A DNA stretch of 64,000 nucleotides from the NCBI GenBank assembly GCA_016179765.1, contig JACPCL010000031.1, positions 64,341 to 128,340 of the forward strand. Reading direction: 5' to 3'. A model generated the notes under the pieces. It was not told the origin of the DNA and did no database searches. It saw nothing but the letters and a program-made list of their open reading frames with translations. Position numbers and translations under genes: made by a program. This document shows, piece after piece, positions 3,934 through 49,300 of the stretch (the first letter of the stretch is position 1; the number at the start of each line of letters is the position of its first letter). This DNA is from Chloroflexota bacterium. Its GTDB lineage: Bacteria > Chloroflexota > Dehalococcoidia > Lucifugimonadales > JACPCL1.

Positions 3934-4821
3934 TCATTGTGCTCCTCTAGCCCATTGTAAATCCCGACCTATCAAGAGTTCGGTCATCTGAACATTATGG
4001 GTATTTTTCATGGGGATCACTTCAATATCAAACCTATGATCTTGTGCTAATCTCTGAGCTTCCAAAGTATTGTCATATGTCATAAGAAAATCGCCTCGCA
4101 AAGTTTCAACTACGTTAAACAACTCTTCGTGGTTCAGGTCATTGTAACGGTAGAGACGTTTCCCTGCTTTTTTCCCCCCGGCAGTATAAGGGGGATCAAT
4201 AAAAAATATGGCATCCTCTTGTGTGGCTTTCTGTCGCAAAAGTGGCACTCCATCACCTTCAATAAAGTCAATCCTATCCTTAATGGCCGCTATGTCCAAT
4301 ATTCGTTTGCGGAGAGTTGCAGGATACCACCGCGACTTGATGCCTTTCCCATTTTCACCGCTCTTGATCACGCCACTGCCAGGTGCAAGAATACCTCCAT
4401 GATTCACTCTGTTCTTAAGCAGGGTTTGAAAAGCCTTCTCTTTAGGATCAGCATATTCTGTGTCTAGAACACTTCTCACTGACTCAAAAGACACATCAAA
4501 TGAGGTTATTTTATTAGCTAGCCATTCGGCGGAGTCCCCGAGAATAGCCTTCCAAACAGCAGCGACTTGGTCATCGAGTTCTGCCAGGACTACCTTAGAA
4601 GCCCAAGCCTCAAATGCCACCGTTAATCCTACGATGCCACCTCCAGCAAAGGGTTCTAGGAACTCCTTTGCTGGTCTTTGCTTCTGAGCAAGCCACTGCC
4701 TGACCAAGGGAACGAACCATGTCTTGCCCCCCGGGTAACGGAAAGGACTCCTCTGGGGAACAGAGGCAACATTCACCACCCGGTGCTGTTCGCCAATAGC
4801 AGGCAATTGTAGCTGCACCAT
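3934..4821 (-). CDS. D12-class (Dam-like) N6-adenine DNA methyltransferase
   Basis: FRYPGGKTWFVP, FLEPFAGGGIVGL and FFIDPPYT motifs. The region is visibly AT-rich compared with its flanks. Confidence 0.85.
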   Translation of the reverse strand: MVQLQLPAIGEQHRVVNVASVPQRSPFRYPGGKTWFVPLVRQWLAQKQRPAKEFLEPFAGGGIVGLTVAFEAWASKVVLAELDDQVAAVWKAILGDSAEWLANKITSFDVSFESVRSVLDTEYADPKEKAFQTLLKNRVNHGGILAPGSGVIKSGENGKGIKSRWYPATLRKRILDIAAIKDRIDFIEGDGVPLLRQKATQEDAIFFIDPPYTAGGKKAGKRLYRYNDLNHEELFNVVETLRGDFLMTYDNTLEAQRLAQDHRFDIEVIPMKNTHNVQMTELLIGRDLQWARGAQ

Positions 4822-4826
4822 GGTTC

Positions 4827-5735
4827 TTACAGTAATACGTCTAGTGTGGGTGCATCAGGTGAGTTATCATCTTCCAGTTTATCATCAAGCTTTGACTGCA
4901 ACAGTTCAAGAAAATCTTTTTCCTCTCCCGTCTCCGGACTCATAATTCTCGCTAATGCAGCTTCAGATCTTACATACACTCTTTTGTGGAGTTGCAATGT
5001 GTATCTCTGCTGCGAAGGGTTGTAGGTTAGGTCATATACGAGCCATACGATGTCCGCTTCATCACTGCTTACTTCCGTGAACTTTGGAAGGCTCTCGTAA
5101 AGACCCCTGTTCAACGCCACTGCCATCTTCCGCTTCCAAGCCCTGAGAATACCTCCCTTGTATATCATTTGCGGAACAAGGCGCTTACGTGATGAAGAGA
5201 GATAATCAGGCCTTGGGTAGTTTGGTTGCTTCGTCCAATCCATATCATGATTGGCTGAAGGGTCTTTCAGATATTGCTCAAATGGCCGACGTATGTTGCC
5301 TGAAATATAGACCGCCTGTATTTCCAGAGCACCGAAGTCAATTACCCTCCCTCGTCCATCATACGAAACAAGGACTATGTCAATGTTCCCCGCAGCCTTT
5401 CCTACCCTGTCCTTTAAGTGCACTTCTGTTAGTGAAGTCCAATTTGTACCCTGAGGGAAGAAGAAAGCGGCGGCATCATCGGAGATTGTCCAATCCTGAC
5501 GAAATCTGATGGGGCAAGTAATGACTACATCATTATCGTCATAAATACTGCAAACCCCAAGAGGATCATTGGCTTTATCTTTGGTACAGTTTGGCACTTT
5601 GTTGTTAAATGGGCAAAGCCTATTTCTGCGGTATCTTGCCGCCTCCAGTGATAGGTTGTGCGGCGGAAAGCCGAACACCTCCGCAAGAGGGTGGCGGTTA
5701 GGTTGCTGCGTCATGTTCGCCGTCATTCGCTCCAT
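4827..5735 (-). CDS. Type II restriction endonuclease, NotI-like family
   Basis: AEVFGFPP..SLEAARYRRNRLCPFNN..CTKDKANDPLGVCS (Cys4 cluster) and IDIVLV...FGALEIQAVY core. ATG 5735 overlaps the purM TAA (TAATG) and GGGGAGGGG lies upstream. The longer ORF reaching 5813 is rejected. Confidence 0.7.
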   Translation of the reverse strand: MERMTANMTQQPNRHPLAEVFGFPPHNLSLEAARYRRNRLCPFNNKVPNCTKDKANDPLGVCSIYDDNDVVITCPIRFRQDWTISDDAAAFFFPQGTNWTSLTEVHLKDRVGKAAGNIDIVLVSYDGRGRVIDFGALEIQAVYISGNIRRPFEQYLKDPSANHDMDWTKQPNYPRPDYLSSSRKRLVPQMIYKGGILRAWKRKMAVALNRGLYESLPKFTEVSSDEADIVWLVYDLTYNPSQQRYTLQLHKRVYVRSEAALARIMSPETGEEKDFLELLQSKLDDKLEDDNSPDAPTLDVLL

Positions 5736-6718
5736 TATCCCCTCCCCACCTCTCCCACCACCCACGCCTCCGGCAGCAGGCGCAGCAGCGCATCCGCATT
5801 GGCCCGCTCGCACGTCATCACCATGCCCACGCCCATGTTGAACACGCGGTACATCTCCTCCCGCGCCACGTTGCCACGCTCCTGGATAATGCGGAACAGC
5901 GCAGGCTCCTTCCAGCTTTCGTAGTCAATGCGCGCCCGCAGGCCAGCGGGAATTGCCCGCGCCACGTTGTCCTCCAGCCCATCGCCGGTGATGTGGCCCA
6001 TGCTCTTCACCAGGGGCAATGCCGGGGCCAGCAGCGGGTAGTAACTGCGGTGCGGCTCTAGCAGGGCCTCTCCCAGGGTGCGGCCAAGCTCCGGGTAGCG
6101 ATCATGCAAGGGGGAAGGGTCCTTGTCCAGGTCAAAGACGTGGCGCACCAGGGAGTATCCATTGGTGTGCAGGCCGCTGGAAGGCACAGCGATCAGGATG
6201 TCGCCCGACTTCACTTTGGTGGGGTCCAGGAGCTGGGGGCGCTCGGCAGCGCCGACGACGAAGCCGCACAGCTCAAAGGCCCCCTCCTGAAAGTGGTTGG
6301 AGAGCTGGGAGGTCTCGCCGCCGATGAGGGCGCAGCCCGCGGCTCGGCACGCCTCGGCGATGCCCTTCACGATGGCCGCTACCCGCTCCGGCACGATCTC
6401 CTCCATGGCGATGTAGTCCAGGAAGAAGAGGGGCCGTGCGCCGGTGGTCAGCACGTCGTTGACGCTCTGGTTCACCACGTCGTGGCCGATGGTATCATAG
6501 CGCCCCATCCAGGAGGCCAGCTTCAGCTTCGTGCCCACGCCGTCGGTGCTGGAGACCAGCACCGGCTCCTTGAAGCCCTCCAGCTTGAACAGGCCACCGA
6601 AGAGGCCGATGTCCCCCAGCACCTGCGGCCCGAAGGTGGAGCGCACGAAGGGGTTGAACAGCTCTTTAGCTCTGGCGGCGGCGTCCAGGTCTACGCCCGC
6701 GTCACGATAGGTGGTCAT
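5735..6718 (-). CDS. purM: Phosphoribosylformylglycinamidine cyclo-ligase (AIR synthetase)
   Basis: 327 aa: MTTYRDAGVDLDAA...SSTDGVGTKLKLA...DYIAM...GGETS. Confidence 0.95.
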   Translation of the reverse strand: MTTYRDAGVDLDAAARAKELFNPFVRSTFGPQVLGDIGLFGGLFKLEGFKEPVLVSSTDGVGTKLKLASWMGRYDTIGHDVVNQSVNDVLTTGARPLFFLDYIAMEEIVPERVAAIVKGIAEACRAAGCALIGGETSQLSNHFQEGAFELCGFVVGAAERPQLLDPTKVKSGDILIAVPSSGLHTNGYSLVRHVFDLDKDPSPLHDRYPELGRTLGEALLEPHRSYYPLLAPALPLVKSMGHITGDGLEDNVARAIPAGLRARIDYESWKEPALFRIIQERGNVAREEMYRVFNMGVGMVMTCERANADALLRLLPEAWVVGEVGRG

Positions 6719-13227: not shown

Positions 13228-13440
13228 TTAGCAAGCTGCTGAAGAACACCCCCAAACCCCCTCAAGGGGGTTCAAGGTATCCGCCTGCGGCGGATGGATT
13301 TGTATTTGGGGGACACCCCCAGACCCCCGCCAGAGGGGCCTTGCCCCTCTGGACTCCCCCTTGATGGGGGAAGGTGAGAGCCTGCCCTGAGCAGAGCGAG
13401 GGGGTGGGGATGAAACCACCGCCATGAGTCAGGCAAACTA
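13228..13440. repeat. Mosaic palindromic repeat block
   Basis: Left-end motif AGCAAGCTGCTGAAGAAC, M2 GTATCCGCCTGCGGCGGAT, M1 TTTGGGGGACACCCCCAGA (13305-13323), M8 GAGCCTGCCCTGAGC. Confidence 0.85.
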
Positions 13441-24289: not shown

Positions 24290-24631
24290 GGGGGGCTGCG
24301 CCGCCGCCACGGGGAACTTTAGCAGGCTCTGACCTCACCCCCTTGTGTTCCCCCTCTCCTAAAGGGGGCTTTGCACCAAAAGTCAGGAAGGTGCAGTCCC
24401 GACATGTCGGGACTGCCGGGGTCTGGGGTGTCCCCAGATACAATTCTTCCCCCTTCCCTTCAGGGAAGGGGGCTAGGGGGTTAGGTCAAAAGGACTTTTG
24501 GAACAAGGCCCCTAAAGGGAGAGGGGGAAGATTAGTTCTGGGGGACACCTCCATCCGCCGCAGGCGGACTCAGGGCAGGCTCCGGGGCTTCGCCCCTCTG
24601 GACTCCCCTTTCTTCCGCAGCCTGCGAGGCC
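24290..24631. repeat. Mosaic palindromic repeat block
   Basis: M6 GTCCCGACATGTCGGGAC, M1 GTCTGGGGTGTCCCCAGATAC (24421-24441), M3 CCCTTCCCTTCAGGGAAGGGGG, M2, and end motif TTCTTCCGCAGCCTGC. Confidence 0.85.
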
Positions 24632-28006: not shown

Positions 28007-28081
28007 TGGTAGCGGGGGTTGGACTCGAACCAACGACCTTCGGGTTATGAGCCCGACGAGCTGCCACTGCTCCACCCCGCG
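28007..28081 (-). tRNA. Initiator tRNA-fMet (CAT anticodon, CCA encoded)
   Basis: CGCGGGGTGGAGCAGTGGCAGCTCGTCGGGCTCATAACCCGAAGGTCGTTGGTTCGAGTCCAACCCCCGCTACCA. Shows a 1:72 mismatch, A11:U24 and three G-C pairs closing the anticodon stem. Confidence 0.9.
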
Positions 28082-28262
28082 ATGGATTGACCTAACCCCC
28101 TGGCCCCCTTCCCTTCCAGGGAAGGGGGAAGAATTGTATCTGGGGGACACCCCCAGACCCCCAGCGGGAACTGACGTTCCCTGCACCCTCCTGACTTTTG
28201 AGGCGGCACTCATCAAGGGAGAGGGGATATTGGAGACAAGGGAGCGGGAGATAGTCAAGGTT
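28082..28262. repeat. Mosaic palindromic repeat block between 23S and the tRNA
   Basis: M3 CCCTTCCCTTCCAGGGAAGGGGG and M1 TATCTGGGGGACACCCCCAGACCC (28137-28160). Confidence 0.85.
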
Positions 28263-28280
28263 GTGTCAGGGACTTAATAT

Positions 28281-31200
<2,920 letters not shown>

Positions 31201-36539: not shown

Positions 36540-37335
36540 GGGGCCTCCTTACCTCTCCCCCCTTCCCCCTCCCCTGAAGAGGGAGGGGGTGAGAAGGATG
36601 GGTTGCCAGGGCATATCGTATACGCGGGGCAGTGCAAAGACAAGGCTGACCGCACCCGTGTGGTAAACGAGTCGTAGGGGCGATGCGGTGCATCGCCCAT
36701 GGGCGTGGGTGGACACGCAGGCCATGCTCCTGCGGGCGCGAAGGCGTTGTAGGGGCGCAGCATGCTGCGCCCCTACGGGCGAGGGCACCCGTTCCGTAGG
36801 GGCAGACCCGGGTGTCTGCCCTGCCCTCGGCCCTGGGCGGACACGTCGGTCCGCCCCTATGGTGGGCACCCTCCCCGTAGGGGCAGACCCGGGTGTCTGC
36901 CCTGTCCTTGGCCCTGGGCGGACACGTCGGTCCGCCCCTATGGTGGGCACCCGTTCCGTAGGGGCAGACCCGGGTGTCTGCCCTGCCTCGGCCCTGGGCG
37001 GACACGCTGGTCCGCCCCTACGGGGAGGGAGGCGCTGCCGTTTTGTCATTCCTACGAAAATGGCTTCCTCCCCCCTTGCGGGGGAGGATTGAGGTAGGGG
37101 GTAGGCCCTCGTTCACCCCCATTCCTTCGCTTCCGCTCAGAGCCTGCCCTGAGCCTGCCGAAGGGACAGGCTCAGGCCTTCCCCCGTCAATGGGGAAGGA
37201 ACTGACGATTGACCCTTTTCATCCCTCCTGTGCTGGCCCCCACCAGGAGAGTTTCCTCGCTTCCCGCCACGCTGCGCTCGCGGCTAAAGGCTCACCGGAA
37301 TGACAGAGGGCTGTCCTACGGGCGCACGGGTATGT
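36540..37335. repeat. ~0.8-kb gap made almost entirely of palindromic repeat modules
   Basis: CCCCCTTCCCCCTCCCCTGAAGAGGGAGGGGG, M7 GTAGGGGCGCAGCATGCTGCGCCCCTAC (36748-36776), the tandem array, and M8 at about 37140. Confidence 0.85.
36748..37030. repeat. Tandem array, about 3 copies of an 81-bp unit
   Basis: GTAGGGGCAGACCCGGGTGTCTGCCC...GGGCGGACACGTCGGTCCGCCCCTATGG starts at 36796, 36877 and 36958 (period 81). Each unit contains two hairpins. Confidence 0.9.
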
Positions 37336-38444: not shown

Positions 38445-38590
38445 CAGGCTGCGGAAGAACACCCCCAAACCCGCCTTTGGCGGGTTCAAGGTATCCGCCT
38501 ACGGCGGATTAATTGGTATCTGGGGGACACCCCCAGACCCCCACCATCCGCCTGAGGCGGACGCCCCACTGGACTCCCCTTTTTTTTGCA
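38444..38590. repeat. Near-complete composite repeat element (MITE-like)
   Basis: GCAGGCTGCGGAAGAAC-ACCCCCAAACC-CGCCTTTGGCGG-TTCAAGGTATCCGCCTACGGCGGAT...TATCTGGGGGACACCCCCAGACCCCC...CATCCGCCTGAGGCGGACGCCCC..GGACTCCCCTTTTTTTT. Confidence 0.85.
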
Positions 38591-42191: not shown

Positions 42192-42437
42192 ATGAATTCA
42201 ACAATTGAAATGGAAAGGCGCAGATGGCTGAGCTTATGGTATGAGGCCCAAGCACTGCGCCAATCGGCTATGTCTGAAACAATAGTTGAGAGCAATGGTG
42301 TGGCAGAGGTGCGACGGCTTGTTCCGAAGGAGTCCTTTGAGACATCTGTCGCCACATTAGCTATGGCTGAGCGGCTAGAGGCGGAATCCAACGCGGCTTA
42401 TTGGCGTATGCTGCACTTACTTAACCCTGTTAAATAA
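42192..42437 (+). CDS. Hypothetical protein
   Basis: 81-aa ORF in the AT-richer islet with no recognisable motif. Confidence 0.35.
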   Translation: MNSTIEMERRRWLSLWYEAQALRQSAMSETIVESNGVAEVRRLVPKESFETSVATLAMAERLEAESNAAYWRMLHLLNPVK

Positions 42438-42479
42438 GCTGACTTTGTCATAGCAGCGCACCGTAGGGTGCATAGGATA

Positions 42480-42850
42480 GATAATGGAGAGGTGGTTGAC
42501 TGTCATTCTGAGCAAGTCCTTCTTTGGAAGGACGCAGCGAAGAATCTAAGGCGCACGTAGGATAGAGCATCTGCTTCCCAAGCAGGGAGTTCAGGAAGGC
42601 AAACGCCTTAGATGCTTCGTCCTTCGGCTGAAGGACTCAGCATGACAAGGGGGACGACCTAACCCCCTTCCCGCACGGGAATCCCGACTTGTCAGGACTC
42701 TCCTTTTGGGAGAGGGGGACCAAGAGGGAGAAGTCAAGAGGTTAACAGAGGGGATACAGCCTGCCCCTTCAGCAGGCTCAGGGCTGGCTCTGAGCAGAAG
42801 ACCGCCGAAAGCCTGCCCTTGAGCGAAGCGAAGGGCCCTGAACACCGTGA
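42480..42850. repeat. Mosaic palindromic repeat block
   Basis: M5-like GTCATTCTGAGCAAG...GCAGCGAAGAATCT, an M6-like module, M4-like GGGAGAGGGGGACCAAGAGGGAGAAGTCAAG, and M8. Confidence 0.8.
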
Positions 42851-42921
42851 AGGAGCAGCCGGAGGGCCCGCCCTTCAGCCGAAGGGCGGGCCTCAATCAC
42901 CCATCATCGGGGAGCACGACC

Positions 42922-45375
42922 ATGACCACTGCCAGGATCGCACCAGCCCTTACACCTAATGCTATCACAATTCTGAAGACGCGCTACCTCATCGGCGATG
43001 AGACGCCTCAGGAGATGTTCACCCGCGTCGCACGGGCCGTGGCCTTAGCAGAGGCCCCCGCCGAACGGGAACGGTGGGAGGCCACCTTCTACAACCTGAT
43101 GGCCAGCACCCGCTTTCTGCCCAACTCGCCCACGCTGTTCAACGCCGGCACGGGCCAGGGCACCCTCTCCGCCTGCTTCGTCCTGCCCGTGGAAGACACC
43201 ATGGAGAGCATCATGCAGGCGGCCACGGCCAGCGCCATGATCCAGAAGTACGGCGGCGGCCTGGGGTACACCTTTGGCAAGCTGCGCCCTCGCGGCAGCA
43301 AGATCGCCACCACCCAGGGCAAGGCCTGCGGCCCCATCGCCGTCCTCAAGATGCTCTCCTCCCTTTCCGATATGATCACCCAGGGGGGCAAGCGCCACGG
43401 GGCCAACATGGGCATCCTCCCCGTGGAGCACCCGGAGGTCCTGGACTTCATCCACATGAAGGACGACGACCAGACGGCCCAGAACTTCAACATCTCCGTT
43501 GCGGTGACCGACGCCTTCATGGAGTCGGTGGAGAAGGACCAGCCGTGGCAGCTCATCAACCCCCACAACGGCAAGGCGGCCAGGACCGTGCCCGCACGCC
43601 AGATATGGACGGAGATCATCCAGTCCGCCTGGAAGACGGGCGACCCCGGCCTCTTCTTCATTGACGAGGCCAACCGCACCAATCCGACGCCCCACGTGGG
43701 CCGCCTGGAGAGCACCAACCCCTGCGGCGAGGTGCCCCTGCTGGCTAACGAGGCCTGCAACCTGGGGTCCATTGACCTGGGCAAGTTCGTCGTGGACGAG
43801 ACGGGCATACGAGCATACGGGCATACGGACATAGGGGCCGTAGCGGCGGACCCACGTGTCCGCCCAACCTTTGACTTCAAGGCCCTGGAGGAGGTGTCGG
43901 CCATCGCCGCCCGCTTCCTGGACAACGTGGTCACCATCAACACCTTCCCCACGCAAGAGGTGACCAACGCCGTGGCCCTGACCCGCAAGACGGGCCTGGG
44001 GGTCATGGGCTGGCACGATGCCCTGGTGCGCCTGGGCATCCCCTACGAGTCGGAGGAGGCCCTGGAGCTGGCCCACCGCGTCATGGGCACCATCACCGAT
44101 ACGGCCCGCGAGGTGTCCCTGGACTTGGCCCAGGCGCGCGGCCCCTACCCCGCCTGGCAGCCCCAGTCCCCTGGCGAGCGGCCCATCCGCAACGCCACGC
44201 GCACCTGCATCGCCCCAACAGGAACCATCAGCGCCATCGCCGGGGCCTCCAGCGGCATTGAGCCCATCTTCGCCCTGGCCTTCGTCAAGAACGTCCTGGA
44301 CGGCAAGCAGCTCCGGGAGGTCAACGCCGACTTTGACCGCATCGCCCGGGAGCGCGGCTTCTACTCCGAGGAGCTGATGGATGCCGTGGCCAGGACCGGC
44401 TCATGCCAGGCGCTCCCGCAAGTCCCCGAGGACGTGAAGCGCCTGTTCAAGGTGGCCAACGAGGTCAGCGCCGACTATCACGTCCGTATGCAGGCGGTGT
44501 TCCAGGAGCACACGGACCTGGCGGTAAGCAAGACCATCAACATGGCCCACTCCGCCACGGTGGAGGACGTGGAGAAGGCCTACTGGCTGGCCTACCACAA
44601 CCGGTGCAAGGGCATCACCATCTACCGCGACGGCTCCAAGTCCATGCAGGTGCTGGAGGTGCAGAAGGAGACTGCGCGGACTACCGTAGGGGCGCAAGGC
44701 CTTGCTCCCCTACAATCGCCCGCAGCCACCACGCTTTCCCCCTCTCCTTTGATGGGAGAGGGCCGGGGTGAGGGTGCGCCCGTTCCCCCCGCCAAGCGGC
44801 CACGCCCCATGGCCATGCAGGGCGTGACGGAGCGTGTGCGCACCGGCCACGGCAACACCTACATCACCATCAACTTTGACGAGCAGGGCCGCCCCTTTGA
44901 GGTGTTCACCACCCTGGGCAAGGCCGGCTCCTGCGACGCCGCCAACCTGGAGGCCATCAGCCGCCTGGTCTCCCTGGCCCTGCGCTCCGGCATCCCCGCC
45001 GAGGAGGTGATTGACCAGCTCCAGGGCATCACCTGCCACCCGGTGTGGGACCAGGGCGAGCTAGTGCGCTCCGCCCCCGATGCCGTGGCCCTGGCCATCA
45101 AGCGCCACGTCAGGTACGTGCAGGAGGGCACGCGTCCCCTGGATGTGACCCAGGTCAAGGCGTCGGAGACGGCGTACAGCGCGCAGCTCAGCCTGCCGAT
45201 GCAGAAGGACATACGGACAAACGGGCAAACGGGCAACGGAGAGGCCCACGGCCCAAGCGCGCCGCACGCTGCCACCGCTATCGGCTTCGCCTGTCCGGAG
45301 TGCGGCGGCCCCGTCGCCTTCCAGGAGGGGTGCGTCCGCTGCCAGGCCTGCGCCTGGAACCAGTGCGGGGGGTAG
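42922..45375 (+). CDS. nrdJ: Class II (adenosylcobalamin-dependent) ribonucleotide reductase
   Basis: MTTARIAPALTPNAITILKTRYL...LSACFV...NPCGEVPL...TGTIS...KGITIYRDGS...C-terminal CPECGG..CxxC. GGGGAG lies before ATG 42922. Confidence 0.9.
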   Translation: MTTARIAPALTPNAITILKTRYLIGDETPQEMFTRVARAVALAEAPAERERWEATFYNLMASTRFLPNSPTLFNAGTGQGTLSACFVLPVEDTMESIMQAATASAMIQKYGGGLGYTFGKLRPRGSKIATTQGKACGPIAVLKMLSSLSDMITQGGKRHGANMGILPVEHPEVLDFIHMKDDDQTAQNFNISVAVTDAFMESVEKDQPWQLINPHNGKAARTVPARQIWTEIIQSAWKTGDPGLFFIDEANRTNPTPHVGRLESTNPCGEVPLLANEACNLGSIDLGKFVVDETGIRAYGHTDIGAVAADPRVRPTFDFKALEEVSAIAARFLDNVVTINTFPTQEVTNAVALTRKTGLGVMGWHDALVRLGIPYESEEALELAHRVMGTITDTAREVSLDLAQARGPYPAWQPQSPGERPIRNATRTCIAPTGTISAIAGASSGIEPIFALAFVKNVLDGKQLREVNADFDRIARERGFYSEELMDAVARTGSCQALPQVPEDVKRLFKVANEVSADYHVRMQAVFQEHTDLAVSKTINMAHSATVEDVEKAYWLAYHNRCKGITIYRDGSKSMQVLEVQKETARTTVGAQGLAPLQSPAATTLSPSPLMGEGRGEGAPVPPAKRPRPMAMQGVTERVRTGHGNTYITINFDEQGRPFEVFTTLGKAGSCDAANLEAISRLVSLALRSGIPAEEVIDQLQGITCHPVWDQGELVRSAPDAVALAIKRHVRYVQEGTRPLDVTQVKASETAYSAQLSLPMQKDIRTNGQTGNGEAHGPSAPHAATAIGFACPECGGPVAFQEGCVRCQACAWNQCGG

Positions 45376-45540
45376 TTTACCTAACCCCCTGCCCCCCTTC
45401 CCTAAAGGGAAGGGGGGACATGAGGAAGGTGCCGGGGAACCTGGGTTCCACGCCGGGGTTCTAGGGGTGTCCCCTAGATACAAATTTCCCCCTCTCCGTT
45501 GCGGAGAGGGGGCCAGGGGGAGAGGTCAGCGAAAGGAGAC
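45376..45540. repeat. Mosaic palindromic repeat block
   Basis: M3 CCCCTTCCCTAAAGGGAAGGGG, M1 TTCTAGGGGTGTCCCCTAGATAC (45459-45481), M4 CCCCCTCTCCGTTGCGGAGAGGGGG. Confidence 0.85.
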
Positions 45541-45548
45541 AGCCAGCC

Positions 45549-45854
45549 ATGGGCAGAAAGAGCCGCGCGAAGTTTGAGAAGCGCCAAGTCCATGCCCTGC
45601 TCCTGCGACGCCAGCCATCCTGCGTGGCGTGTCAAAAGGCTTTTGACCCCACCATGGACCACGACGTGCAGCCCGAAGGCGTCTGCTGGCGATGCCCCTG
45701 CGGCGAAGTAACGGTTGGAAGAGCCATCTTCATACCAGGCGAAGAAGGGTTCTTTATATCGGTCCCCCTCTCAGAGCTCGTGGAGGAGATGGATGGGATT
45801 GCTGCCCAAGAGAAGACAGGTGACAGGGAACCCCGTTCCCTGCCGGGGTACTAG
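45549..45854 (+). CDS. Hypothetical Cys-rich protein
   Basis: AAAGGAGA lies upstream. CVAC...CWRCPCG. Confidence 0.45.
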   Translation: MGRKSRAKFEKRQVHALLLRRQPSCVACQKAFDPTMDHDVQPEGVCWRCPCGEVTVGRAIFIPGEEGFFISVPLSELVEEMDGIAAQEKTGDREPRSLPGY

Positions 45855-46200
45855 AGCCTGCCCTGAGCGCAGCGAATGGGGGTGTCCCCTAGATCAATCT
45901 TCCCCCTCCCCTAAAGTGGGAGGGGGACTGAGGGGGTGAGGTCAGGGGTCACCTTCGCACTAGCAACGGAAAAGGAGAAGGCAACCGCCGCTGTCATTCT
46001 GAGCGCAGCGAAGAATCTGGTTAGCCCTTCCCGGCAAGAGCAAGGGAAAACAGCAGTGGTCTATTAACCCAGGCAAGATTCATTCGGTCGTCCCGACTTC
46101 ATCGGGACTCCCTCAGAATGACAATCTTCCCCCTCCCACTTTAGGGGAGGGGGACCAAGGGGGAGAGGTAAGGAGGCATCTGCCAAGTCACAGACAGGAG
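45855..46200. repeat. Mosaic palindromic repeat block
   Basis: M8, M1 (45878-45895), M4 CCCCCTCCCCTAAAGTGGGAGGGGG, M5 GTCATTCTGAGCGCAGCGAAGAATCT, M6 plus inverted M5, and M4 again. Confidence 0.85.
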
Positions 46201-46205
46201 GGCCC

Positions 46206-46634
46206 ATGCTGGTACGCCAAAACATCCCCTGGCTGATAGATGGCACGCTGCCCCAGGTCACCGGACGTGTGCCTGACGCCCGGGCCACCCGCCTGCGAGG
46301 CAACGACGCCCTGGACCTGGCCGCGGAAGAGGGGCGCTGGCTGGCGACACGGGACGAGCGTCTTCCCGGTGAAGCGCCGTCGGGTAGCCTGCCGGTGGTC
46401 ATCCTGACGGGCGGGCCGTGGACAGCGGAAGGGCTGACCCGAAACCTGCGGCACTTCCAGTTCTGCCTGAGCAGAAGCCCGCACCAGCCGCACATTGGCG
46501 AGCGGTTCATCCTGGAGATGGACCGCCGCATCTACAGGCTCCGTCCGGAAAGCGGAGCGGAGGAGCTTCAGACCTGGCAGGTCCCCAGTATCACTGCCGG
46601 CAGGTCGGGACTGGCGGTGGGCGCCCCGGCGTAA
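46206..46634 (+). CDS. Hypothetical protein
   Basis: GGAGGG lies before the ATG. 142 aa with no recognised motif. Confidence 0.5.
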   Translation: MLVRQNIPWLIDGTLPQVTGRVPDARATRLRGNDALDLAAEEGRWLATRDERLPGEAPSGSLPVVILTGGPWTAEGLTRNLRHFQFCLSRSPHQPHIGERFILEMDRRIYRLRPESGAEELQTWQVPSITAGRSGLAVGAPA

Positions 46635-49149: not shown

Positions 49150-49300
49150 GGAGGAACCTAACCCCCTCGGTCCCCCTTCCACGTTGGGGAAGGGGGATGA
49201 GGCTACTTGTAGGGTTTTGCGGCTGTGCCGCAAAACCCTACAACAAAAAACCCCTCTCCCTTTGGGACAAAGGGACACAAGGAGGAGAGGTTACCACAGG
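49150..49300. repeat. Palindromic repeat modules
   Basis: M3 CCCCCTTCCACGTTGGGGAAGGGGG, GTAGGGTTTTGCGGCTGTGCCGCAAAACCCTAC, CTCTCCCTTTGGGACAAAGGGAC. Confidence 0.8.

Follow-up and report, generated by a model that had tools for sequence, protein, structure and literature searches.

Can small palindromic repeats of the kind that usually lies between genes be carried, in frame, within the gene of a core enzyme? The question is raised by nrdJ, which encodes a class II (adenosylcobalamin, vitamin-B12-dependent) ribonucleotide reductase (RNR) at 42922-45375 (+) in a stretch of 64,000 nucleotides of contig JACPCL010000031.1 from a Dehalococcoidia (Chloroflexota) genome; this whole stretch is called the window below. 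An earlier examination of the letters alone, the sequence-only reading, had pointed to four segments of nrdJ (43804-43866, 44686-44713, 44738-44775 and 45209-45240) as being built from modules that also fill intergenic gaps, and had proposed repeat-driven, lineage-specific insertion in frame. The four segments are indeed present there, in frame, in one open reading frame (ORF) of 817 codons. Judging from the comparisons described here, we consider it likely that small hairpin-forming repeats of the genome have colonised two disordered parts of NrdJ, namely the loop after barrel strand βF (loop 1) and the linker that joins the barrel to the TSCPD/IscU-like domain (linker 1). The repeats would be GTAG-tagged palindromes of the repetitive extragenic palindromic (REP) type together with a second hairpin family that has the stem CCCCCTCTCC (family B), both of them also intergenic in the lineage.

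The start of the 817-aa protein at 42922 was set by orthologue alignment. Its layout comprises an N-terminal all-alpha domain, the catalytic barrel, a TSCPD/IscU-like domain and a C-terminal Cys-rich zinc finger, and Pfam returned only RNR domains (RNR lgN, which is the all-alpha domain, RNR barrel and TSCPD). The features of a class II NrdJ were all found, namely the NPCGE finger loop, the βA/βF Cys pair, the TSCPD/IscU-like domain and the Cys-rich zinc finger; NPCGE, C85, C279 and CPEC...C..C...C are invariant among 74 NrdJ orthologues. The best PDB match by sequence is the Thermotoga maritima NrdJ (1XJK/1XJE), and the AlphaFold2 model matches the fold of the same enzyme (1XJN/3O0Q) with a TM score of 0.79. 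The nearest genomes by NrdJ are metagenome-assembled genomes of Dehalococcoidia/Chloroflexota with protein identity of at most 69%. Calling the gene essential, as the sequence-only reading did, is an assumption, since no second RNR was sought beyond the 64 kb.

The reference copies of the GTAG-tagged hairpins form an intergenic cluster at 36672-37023, with copies at 36674, 36749, 36796, 36877, 36958 and 37021 (-). The units are 26-28 nt long, GTAG abuts the stem-loop in every one of them, and the 28-mer at 36749-36776 is a perfect palindrome. Within the 64 kb there are nine such hairpins between genes, all in this one cluster, and two in nrdJ. The first of the two, patch 1b (43838-43866, +; CCGTAGCGGCGGACCCACGTGTCCGCCCA), has its GTAG at 43840 (GTAGCGGCGGAC...GTCCGCC), encodes AVAADPRVRP and agrees in 26 of 29 positions with the intergenic units at 36834-36862, 36915-36943 and 36995-37023. 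It was the top coding match of a profile built from intergenic copies only (nhmmer, 15.2 bits, E=0.0018). The second, patch 2, is a 48-nt imperfect palindrome at 44676-44723 (+). Its core at 44686-44713, GTAGGGGCGCAAGGCCTTGCTCCCCTAC, encoding VGAQGLAPLQ, is the centre of the longest inverted repeat of the window. The pattern GTAGGGGCGN10CGCCCCTAC is matched in the window only by this core, with one mismatch, and by 36749-36776, where 0.02 matches are expected by chance, which agrees with the earlier assignment of 44686-44713 to the intergenic modules. The sequence-only GTAG profile barely detected patch 2 (E=0.34) because stems vary among GTAG members; the pattern test and the copy in a related gene described below settle its membership. 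As RNA, patch 2 folds with z=-3.4 and none of 200 shuffles folds as well, whereas the folds of patches 1 and 3 are no better than those of shuffles (z -1.8 and -1.2). Within the intergenic cluster, an 81-nt unit occurs three times (92% match) at 36783-37020, in a gene-free stretch of 954 nt. This is a block resembling a bacterial interspersed mosaic element (BIME) or a REP doublet forming a hairpin (REPIN), and each 81-nt unit contains two GTAG-type hairpins in opposite orientation, that is, a head-to-head doublet.

Family B consists of a T-rich lead, the CCCCCTCTCC stem, a loop, a GGGAGAGGG stem and a GGGGTGAGGGTG tail, and its profile form from 11 intergenic units is CCCCCTYYCC-loop-GGRRAGGGGG-n-AGGGGGWKAGGTCA. 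A fixed-loop pattern found nothing, as loop length varies, and regular expressions and the profile were used instead. There are at least 11 intergenic units of 46-49 nt in both orientations. Two lie directly 3' of nrdJ at 45376-45421 (-) and 45483-45529 (+), both conserved in the orthologue of 90% identity; others are at 45897-45945 and 46124-46172 (+), at 62454-62502 (+; 38.7 bits), and at 2119-2161, 24329-24368, 24444-24489, 28087-28133, 36548-36592 and 49155-49200. Rfam gave no match to family B. Several of the units are preceded by GGGGTGTCCCCTAGATACAA, and some end in ...GGGGGAGAGGTAAGGAGG, which resembles a ribosome-binding site. Patch 3 (44735-44776, +), which encodes LSPSPLMGEGRGEG, is a degenerate unit of this family. 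Its positions 44735-44772 scored 18.0 bits (E=1.3e-4) against the profile of the 11 intergenic copies (nhmmer), with the next coding match at E=0.6, so that the likeness claimed for 44738-44775 stands. Its closest match (31 of 38 positions) is 45485-45522, about 750 nt downstream, in the second of the two units that follow the gene. The E-values of single pairwise BLAST comparisons within the window are modest, from 1e-3 to 0.2. An unbiased BLAST of intergenic sequence against the 45 coding sequences of the window gave nrdJ the most matches (5 of 14). Four of the five are the patch-1 hairpin and patch 3; the fifth, a 24-nt match at 44927-44949, looks like chance.

The two remaining patches are imperfect period-8 arrays, found with Tandem Repeats Finder and only 83-85% regular. 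Patch 1a (43801-43838, +) is an array of ACGGGCAT with 4.8 copies, lies immediately 5' of the GTAG hairpin of patch 1b and encodes TGIRAYGHTDIG. Its octamer units grade into the hairpin head through CATACGAG, CATACGGG, CATACGGA, CATAGGGG and CCGTAGCGG, after which the stem follows. Patch 4 (45207-45240, +), an array of GGACAAAC with 4.4 copies that encodes DIRTNGQTGNG, lies in the linker that joins the TSCPD domain to the zinc finger. This linker has Asn-Gly repeats in all orthologues, with (AACGGC)n in others; its length is unremarkable (31 aa against a median of 24 among the 74 orthologues), and the array of patch 4 is shared with the 90% orthologue. On these comparisons patch 4 is best described as a remodelled native Asn-Gly linker and not as an inserted dispersed repeat, and here we depart from the sequence-only reading, which had counted 45209-45240 among the intergenic modules.

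In order to follow the patches through related genes, orthologues were compared at graded distance. The protein search gave a series of 90% overall identity (P0002), 80% (P0003), 71% (P0004) and many at or below 70%, and the graded series at the DNA level has 97%, 85% and 69% nucleotide identity outside the patches. Against the 74 orthologues, loop 1 (after GKFV) has 26 aa in the NrdJ of the window where the median is 8, and linker 1 (QVLEV to RP) has 47 aa where the median is 22, the longest of all. The long versions of loop and linker occur only in the window, P0002 and P0003, and the two repeat families (A and B) were detected only at these three loci. Neither family was found at six more distant orthologue loci, where the loops are short. 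Where the flanks of an orthologue have no copies of the repeat families, as in P0004 and at greater distance, the patch sequences are missing as well. The orthologue alignment therefore upholds the proposal of repeat-driven, in-frame insertion in one lineage for loop 1 and linker 1.

Within this lineage the turnover of the patches far outpaces that of the gene. Nucleotide identity between the window and P0002 is 96.7% outside the patches and 59% inside them, with many gaps. In P0002 the same octamer array (ACGGGCATACGAGCATACG..., peptide TGIRAY.HT) sits in the linker and not in loop 1, and remnants of both hairpins are left: one arm of the loop-1 hairpin is deleted and the centre of the linker palindrome is split by octamers. 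P0003 (L081) has an intact GTAGGGGCGGACCCACGTGTCCGCCC at the loop-1 site, and its linker carries GTAGGGACGCAGCATGCTGCGCCCCTAC, which matches the intergenic copy of the window at 36749 in 27 of 28 positions. Two extra segments set the window apart from P0003: a clean stretch of 45 nt (15 codons) of octamers on the 5' side of the loop-1 hairpin and, in the linker, 48 nt after the palindrome, the length of one family-B unit (46-49 nt). The family-B unit, patch 3, is absent from both P0002 and P0003. Every version of every patch in all three lineages is a multiple of three in length and free of stops. That frame and the stop-free state are kept despite the scrambling argues that the segments are translated and not removed. 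The DNA series across the window, P0002 and P0003 is the strongest evidence for insertion. An assembly artefact was considered and rejected: a Logan contig encodes the same protein, and assemblies of other samples at JGI and ENA contain related versions. The Logan contig in question (L080) is short and was assembled separately, although its reads may be those behind the genome bin.

Some further orthologues have sequences of interest at the same two sites. In P0005, loop 1 holds an imperfect palindrome of about 85 nt that starts with GTAG (L205 10859-10945), and P0037 (L012, 3868-3951) has a related, duplicated CCTTCGGCRGGCTCAGG motif. The linker of the SAR202 orthologue P0078 contains CCTGTCCTGAGCGCAGTCGAAGG, like another repeat of the window at about 45995, and a Dehalococcoidia NrdJ gene has a CTGAGCGCAGTCGAAGG motif at one of the same two sites (L206 11655-11680). 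Loop 1 and linker 1 may be recurrent acceptors of repeats across lineages, the inserts in P0005, P0037 and P0078 being candidate repeats within the short flanks available.

The positions of the patches in the protein are consistent with tolerance of extra sequence. In the alignment with T. maritima NrdJ, residues 334-344 of that enzyme correspond to residues 280-290 here (NLGSIDLGKFV, where βF with its redox Cys279 ends) and residue 349 corresponds to 317, so that loop 1 spans 4 residues in T. maritima against 26 in the present protein; linker 1 starts just after QVL, at the point where the crystallised T. maritima construct stops. The AlphaFold2 model has a mean predicted local distance difference test score of 79, with values below 50 at residues 301-307, 451-457, 576-620 and 737-787. 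According to this model, all patches lie in low-confidence coil, in the loop that follows βF and in two linkers, one past the barrel and one ahead of the zinc finger, which is in line with the linker-like peptides described earlier. The peptide TTVGAQGLAPLQSPAATTLSPSPLMGEGR is an example of what is predicted across the patches. The G+C content at third codon positions (GC3) is 0.45-0.67 in the patches and 0.92 elsewhere in nrdJ, and a scan with 12 codons flagged the three patch regions and otherwise only the N-terminal part of the protein (residues 1-24 and, mildly, 37-53). The lower GC3 of the patches fits a non-coding origin.

The palindrome is by no means limited to this window. A scan of metagenomic contigs with GTAGGGGCGN8-14CGCCCCTAC matched at least 120 stretches, and the commonest centre, in 15 of 132 among the matches listed, was that of the 28-mer of the window. 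The bare 28-nt palindrome is found in many contigs with unrelated flanks, and therefore the unit is the palindrome alone; the host contigs range from 31% to 72% GC. It also occurs in frame in three proteins, always in the frame V-G-A...P-L and encoding VGAQHAAPL or VGATGRSPL: Mfd (L181 4551-4578, in the gap between the UvrB-interaction and CarD-like parts), PrmC (L166 1202-1229, before NPPY) and Peripla_BP_6 (L147 1307-1334). The centre variant of the window, GTAGGGGCGCAAGGCCTTGCGCCCCTAC, is intergenic at 3072-3099 of contig L174 (47% GC), which also has GCGATCGC and suggests a cyanobacterium; distant lineages therefore share the head and tail of this type of palindrome. When a protein database was searched with a chimera of the module peptides (81 aa), there were no matches, which is uninformative on how frequent such peptides are.

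Taken as colonisation, the history of the two segments would run as follows. Copies of the hairpins would have arrived by single-strand transposition of the REP-associated tyrosine transposase (RAYT) type, or else by templated copying or gene conversion from other copies. Only copies whose net effect was a multiple of three and stop-free would have survived, to be translated as extra coil. Slippage or stuttering would then probably have produced the period-8 arrays beside the hairpin heads. With the deletion of hairpin arms and the addition of a family-B unit, the segments would have been remodelled much faster than the rest of the gene. The peptides would be made and would ride along as near-neutral passengers.

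Several observations weigh against this account. With its 27-nt hairpin, the loop of P0003 exceeds the usual one by a net of only about 3 codons; simple insertion is therefore insufficient and replacement or later trimming is needed. Also, no clean pair of an empty and a filled site was found. Between the window and P0003, three paired changes in the linker palindrome keep its centre self-complementary (CAAGGCCTTG against CAGCATGCTG); these call for arm-to-arm correction, replacement by a variant or selection on the hairpin, and are not predicted for a purely neutral passenger. The octamers of patches 1a and 4 have no intergenic counterpart, nrdJ being their sole site within the window, and of the segment 43804-43866 that had been read as one intergenic module only the hairpin at 43838-43866 holds up, the octamers at 43801-43838 being dropped. 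Nor are octamer arrays general companions of GTAG palindromes, as one heptamer array was found around the 132 matches scanned. Among 17 copies of the 28-mer there were no target-site duplications or duplicated flanks and nothing was conserved beyond the hairpin, and no RAYT was found among the 10 unassigned ORFs of the window scanned with Pfam. Concerning the arrays, P0003 again has one directly 5' of a GTAG palindrome, with a duplicated GCCGTA, tandem duplications of head or arm flank such palindromes in four metagenomic loci (L101, L145, L170 and L197), and head-like heptamers are about 2.6 times enriched within 40 nt of palindromes (14 of 259 flanks against a background of 2.1%). The octamer arrays might be stutter products beside the hairpin, and this is a weak reading because such arrays are no general feature of the GTAG family.

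The alternative that survives best concerns the way of arrival. The modules may have been copied by homologous or templated events, such as gene conversion or template switching at stalled forks, from nearby intergenic copies and not by transposition, with a hairpin already in the gene serving as landing pad for further copies. The proximity of the copy closest to patch 3, the replacement of the ancestral loop by the hairpin of P0003 instead of a simple addition to it, and the tandem duplications in the four metagenomic loci just mentioned are in agreement with such copying. The linker site, moreover, holds different centre variants in two lineages, and that of the window exists elsewhere (L174). 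The flanks of the dispersed copies, however, share no homology that could guide conversion, and no donor with a matching flank was found. We regard copying as a possibility that falls short of being probable; copying and transposition are indistinguishable with the present data.

A stronger proposition is that the REP hairpin in the gene acts as a landing pad on which period-8 stuttering, swapping of centre variants and added families follow one another, or that its self-complementarity reflects a selected mRNA or DNA hairpin at a domain boundary. Such a landing pad, once fixed in a permissive loop, would make two segments of a core enzyme into rapidly rewritten cassettes. We think this unlikely. 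Slightly less credit goes to the reading in which the hairpins are kept for a function, be it pausing of translation at the domain boundary, stability of the mRNA or binding of a protein to the DNA, and the coding insert is a by-product. The linker palindrome has stayed self-complementary through its three paired differences from the 80% orthologue, patch 2 folds better than its shuffles, and linker 1 lies exactly between two folding units. The loop-1 hairpin is 26/27 identical between the window and P0003, where the gene is about 85% identical, with p of about 0.07 in a binomial estimate, which is not significant. Palindrome arms can, however, correct each other without selection. P0002, at 96.7% identity, has lost one loop-1 arm and has its linker palindrome opened by octamers, and these broken hairpins argue against strong selection on the hairpin. 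More distant orthologues have no hairpins at these sites, and the folds of patches 1 and 3 are unexceptional. A functional role for the hairpins is therefore improbable in our view.

Colonisation by repeats must also be weighed against ordinary fast evolution of low-complexity linkers, in which the likeness to intergenic sequence would be compositional chance in a GC-rich gene. NrdJ linkers do vary in length and sequence in all lineages, and the single pairwise BLAST E-values are modest. For patches 1b, 2 and 3, chance is nevertheless contradicted by the pattern match against its expectation of 0.02, by profile E-values of 1.3e-4 and 1.8e-3 with no comparable match in about 47 kb of other coding DNA, by the 27/28 agreement between the in-gene copy of P0003 and an intergenic copy of the window, and by the same 28-mer in many unrelated contigs; as a whole this explanation is very improbable, while for patch 4 it is the best description. 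Removal of the patches before the mature enzyme, as intron, intein or bypass, or use of the period-8 arrays as a frameshift switch is just as implausible, although NrdJ genes are known intein hosts and a period of 8, not being a multiple of 3, would shift the frame with each unit gained or lost: the patches have 9-16 codons, far below intein size (neither a Hint/LAGLIDADG domain of at least about 130 aa nor a group I/II intron was found), Pfam gave RNR domains only, nrdJ and its surroundings (42400-46300, E<=1) matched no Rfam entry for a riboswitch, an intron or any further kind of RNA apart from a chance match outside the gene, three lineages with different patches all keep the frame, which would be needless if they were excised, the arrays are irregular, and the same protein is on L080 (with possibly shared reads); the intein, intron and bypass readings were accordingly rejected on size and frame conservation.

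Reportedly, as Loderer et al. are said to have found in 2017, the C-terminal extensions of class II RNRs vary widely in length. What follows the last barrel strand of these enzymes has been described as an extension that varies and includes an IscU-like domain as well as a zinc finger carrying the reducing cysteines (PMC9669993, Burnim et al. 2022). The same region is variable here; the published variation is diversification at the level of domains and not of repeats, and the main text of Burnim et al. (PMC9669993) contains neither the term 'mobile element' nor the word 'linker'.

The nearest known systems are the GTAG-tagged REPs of the REP/REPIN-RAYT systems (Nunvar et al. 2010, PMC2817692; Di Nocera et al. 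2013, PMC3733652). Such REPs have been described from Proteobacteria, Cyanobacteria, Chloroflexi and PVC (Planctomycetes-Verrucomicrobia-Chlamydiae) bacteria; GTAG-23, the family of Chloroflexi, is confined to a few clustered blocks, and several species have intragenic copies, of which many lie in genes for replication and repair (PMC3733652). As in that family, GTAG stands 5' beside an imperfect palindrome of 20-40 nt, inverted dimers and clusters of the BIME/REPIN kind are found (36783-37020) and are likewise clustered in blocks, and occasional copies lie in frame in known genes, in this case nrdJ. Unlike the usual extragenic members, the copies at issue are inside nrdJ, although exceptions of this intragenic kind are on record for the GTAG class (PMC3733652); no cognate transposase was seen in the 64 kb, and RNR is not among the REP-decorated genes in the supplement of the same paper. 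The copies in nrdJ also differ in being accompanied by period-8 arrays and an unrelated hairpin family, and in their turnover between strains 96.7% identical. Rickettsia palindromic elements (RPEs) are palindromic repeats found between genes and in frame in unrelated housekeeping genes (PMC10969869). The present repeats likewise lie between genes and in frame in unrelated genes, where they are tolerated in permissive parts (nrdJ; Mfd, PrmC and Peripla_BP_6). RPEs are about 100-150 bp long with a conserved peptide, whereas the modules here have 26-48 nt, belong to a different phylum and have no demonstrated sequence relation to them. The terminal inverted repeats with target-site duplication that mark a miniature inverted-repeat transposable element were not found.

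Around nrdJ, the gene for NrdR lies 1.6 kb upstream, and no cobalamin riboswitch was found upstream of nrdJ. A GC-rich hairpin of 12 bp (GGCCCGCCCTTC AGCC GAAGGGCGGGCC) is present at 42865-42892, about 30 nt before the start codon, and a weak family-B copy at 42698-42736 lies farther 5'. Directly 3' of nrdJ is an ORF of 101 aa at 45549-45854 (+) that is flanked on both sides by family-B repeats and has CxxC...CxC spacing; Pfam gave no match for it, and on L080 an ORF of 60 residues starts at the matching position (gene call from 2753). Elsewhere in the window, a composite repeat of about 100 nt (TCAAGGTATCCGCCTRCGGCGGAT ... GTATCTGGGGGACACCCCCAGACCCCC ... CATCCGCCTGMGGCGGACGCCCC) is found at 13270-13320, 38486-38580, 58086-58180 and also 58602-58623, and one partial copy runs into the 3' end of a called coding sequence. 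At 3937-5924 (-), a NotI-family restriction endonuclease (E=8e-63) lies next to a D12-class adenine methyltransferase; GC3 is lower in this stretch (about 0.57, from an overlapping ORF call) than in most genes (about 0.8-0.9), and it is probably an acquired restriction-modification island. The 23S rRNA gene and one tRNA are at 28010-31200 (-), no 16S or 5S rRNA was found in the 64 kb at Rfam gathering thresholds, and the rRNA genes appear to be unlinked. A segment of 52 nt is present twice with 94% identity, at 572-623 in a coding sequence near the start of the window and at 1355-1406, about 780 nt apart.

With this finding a known phenomenon is extended to a new gene and a new lineage, as intragenic REPs were described in 2013 and RPEs earlier, and no new class of mechanism is opened; the very fast turnover between nearly identical strains is an additional observation. 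If the colonisation of loop 1 and linker 1 is true, it would add a B12-dependent RNR of Dehalococcoidia to the conserved enzymes with translated REP-type hairpins, and, as the orthologue series shows, such segments change far faster than the gene itself diverges. Differences in length or identity of NrdJ between close strains, and linker-like peptides such as VGAQHAAPL, can then be artefacts of repeats and not functional motifs, and the two sites would be natural markers of where NrdJ tolerates insertion.

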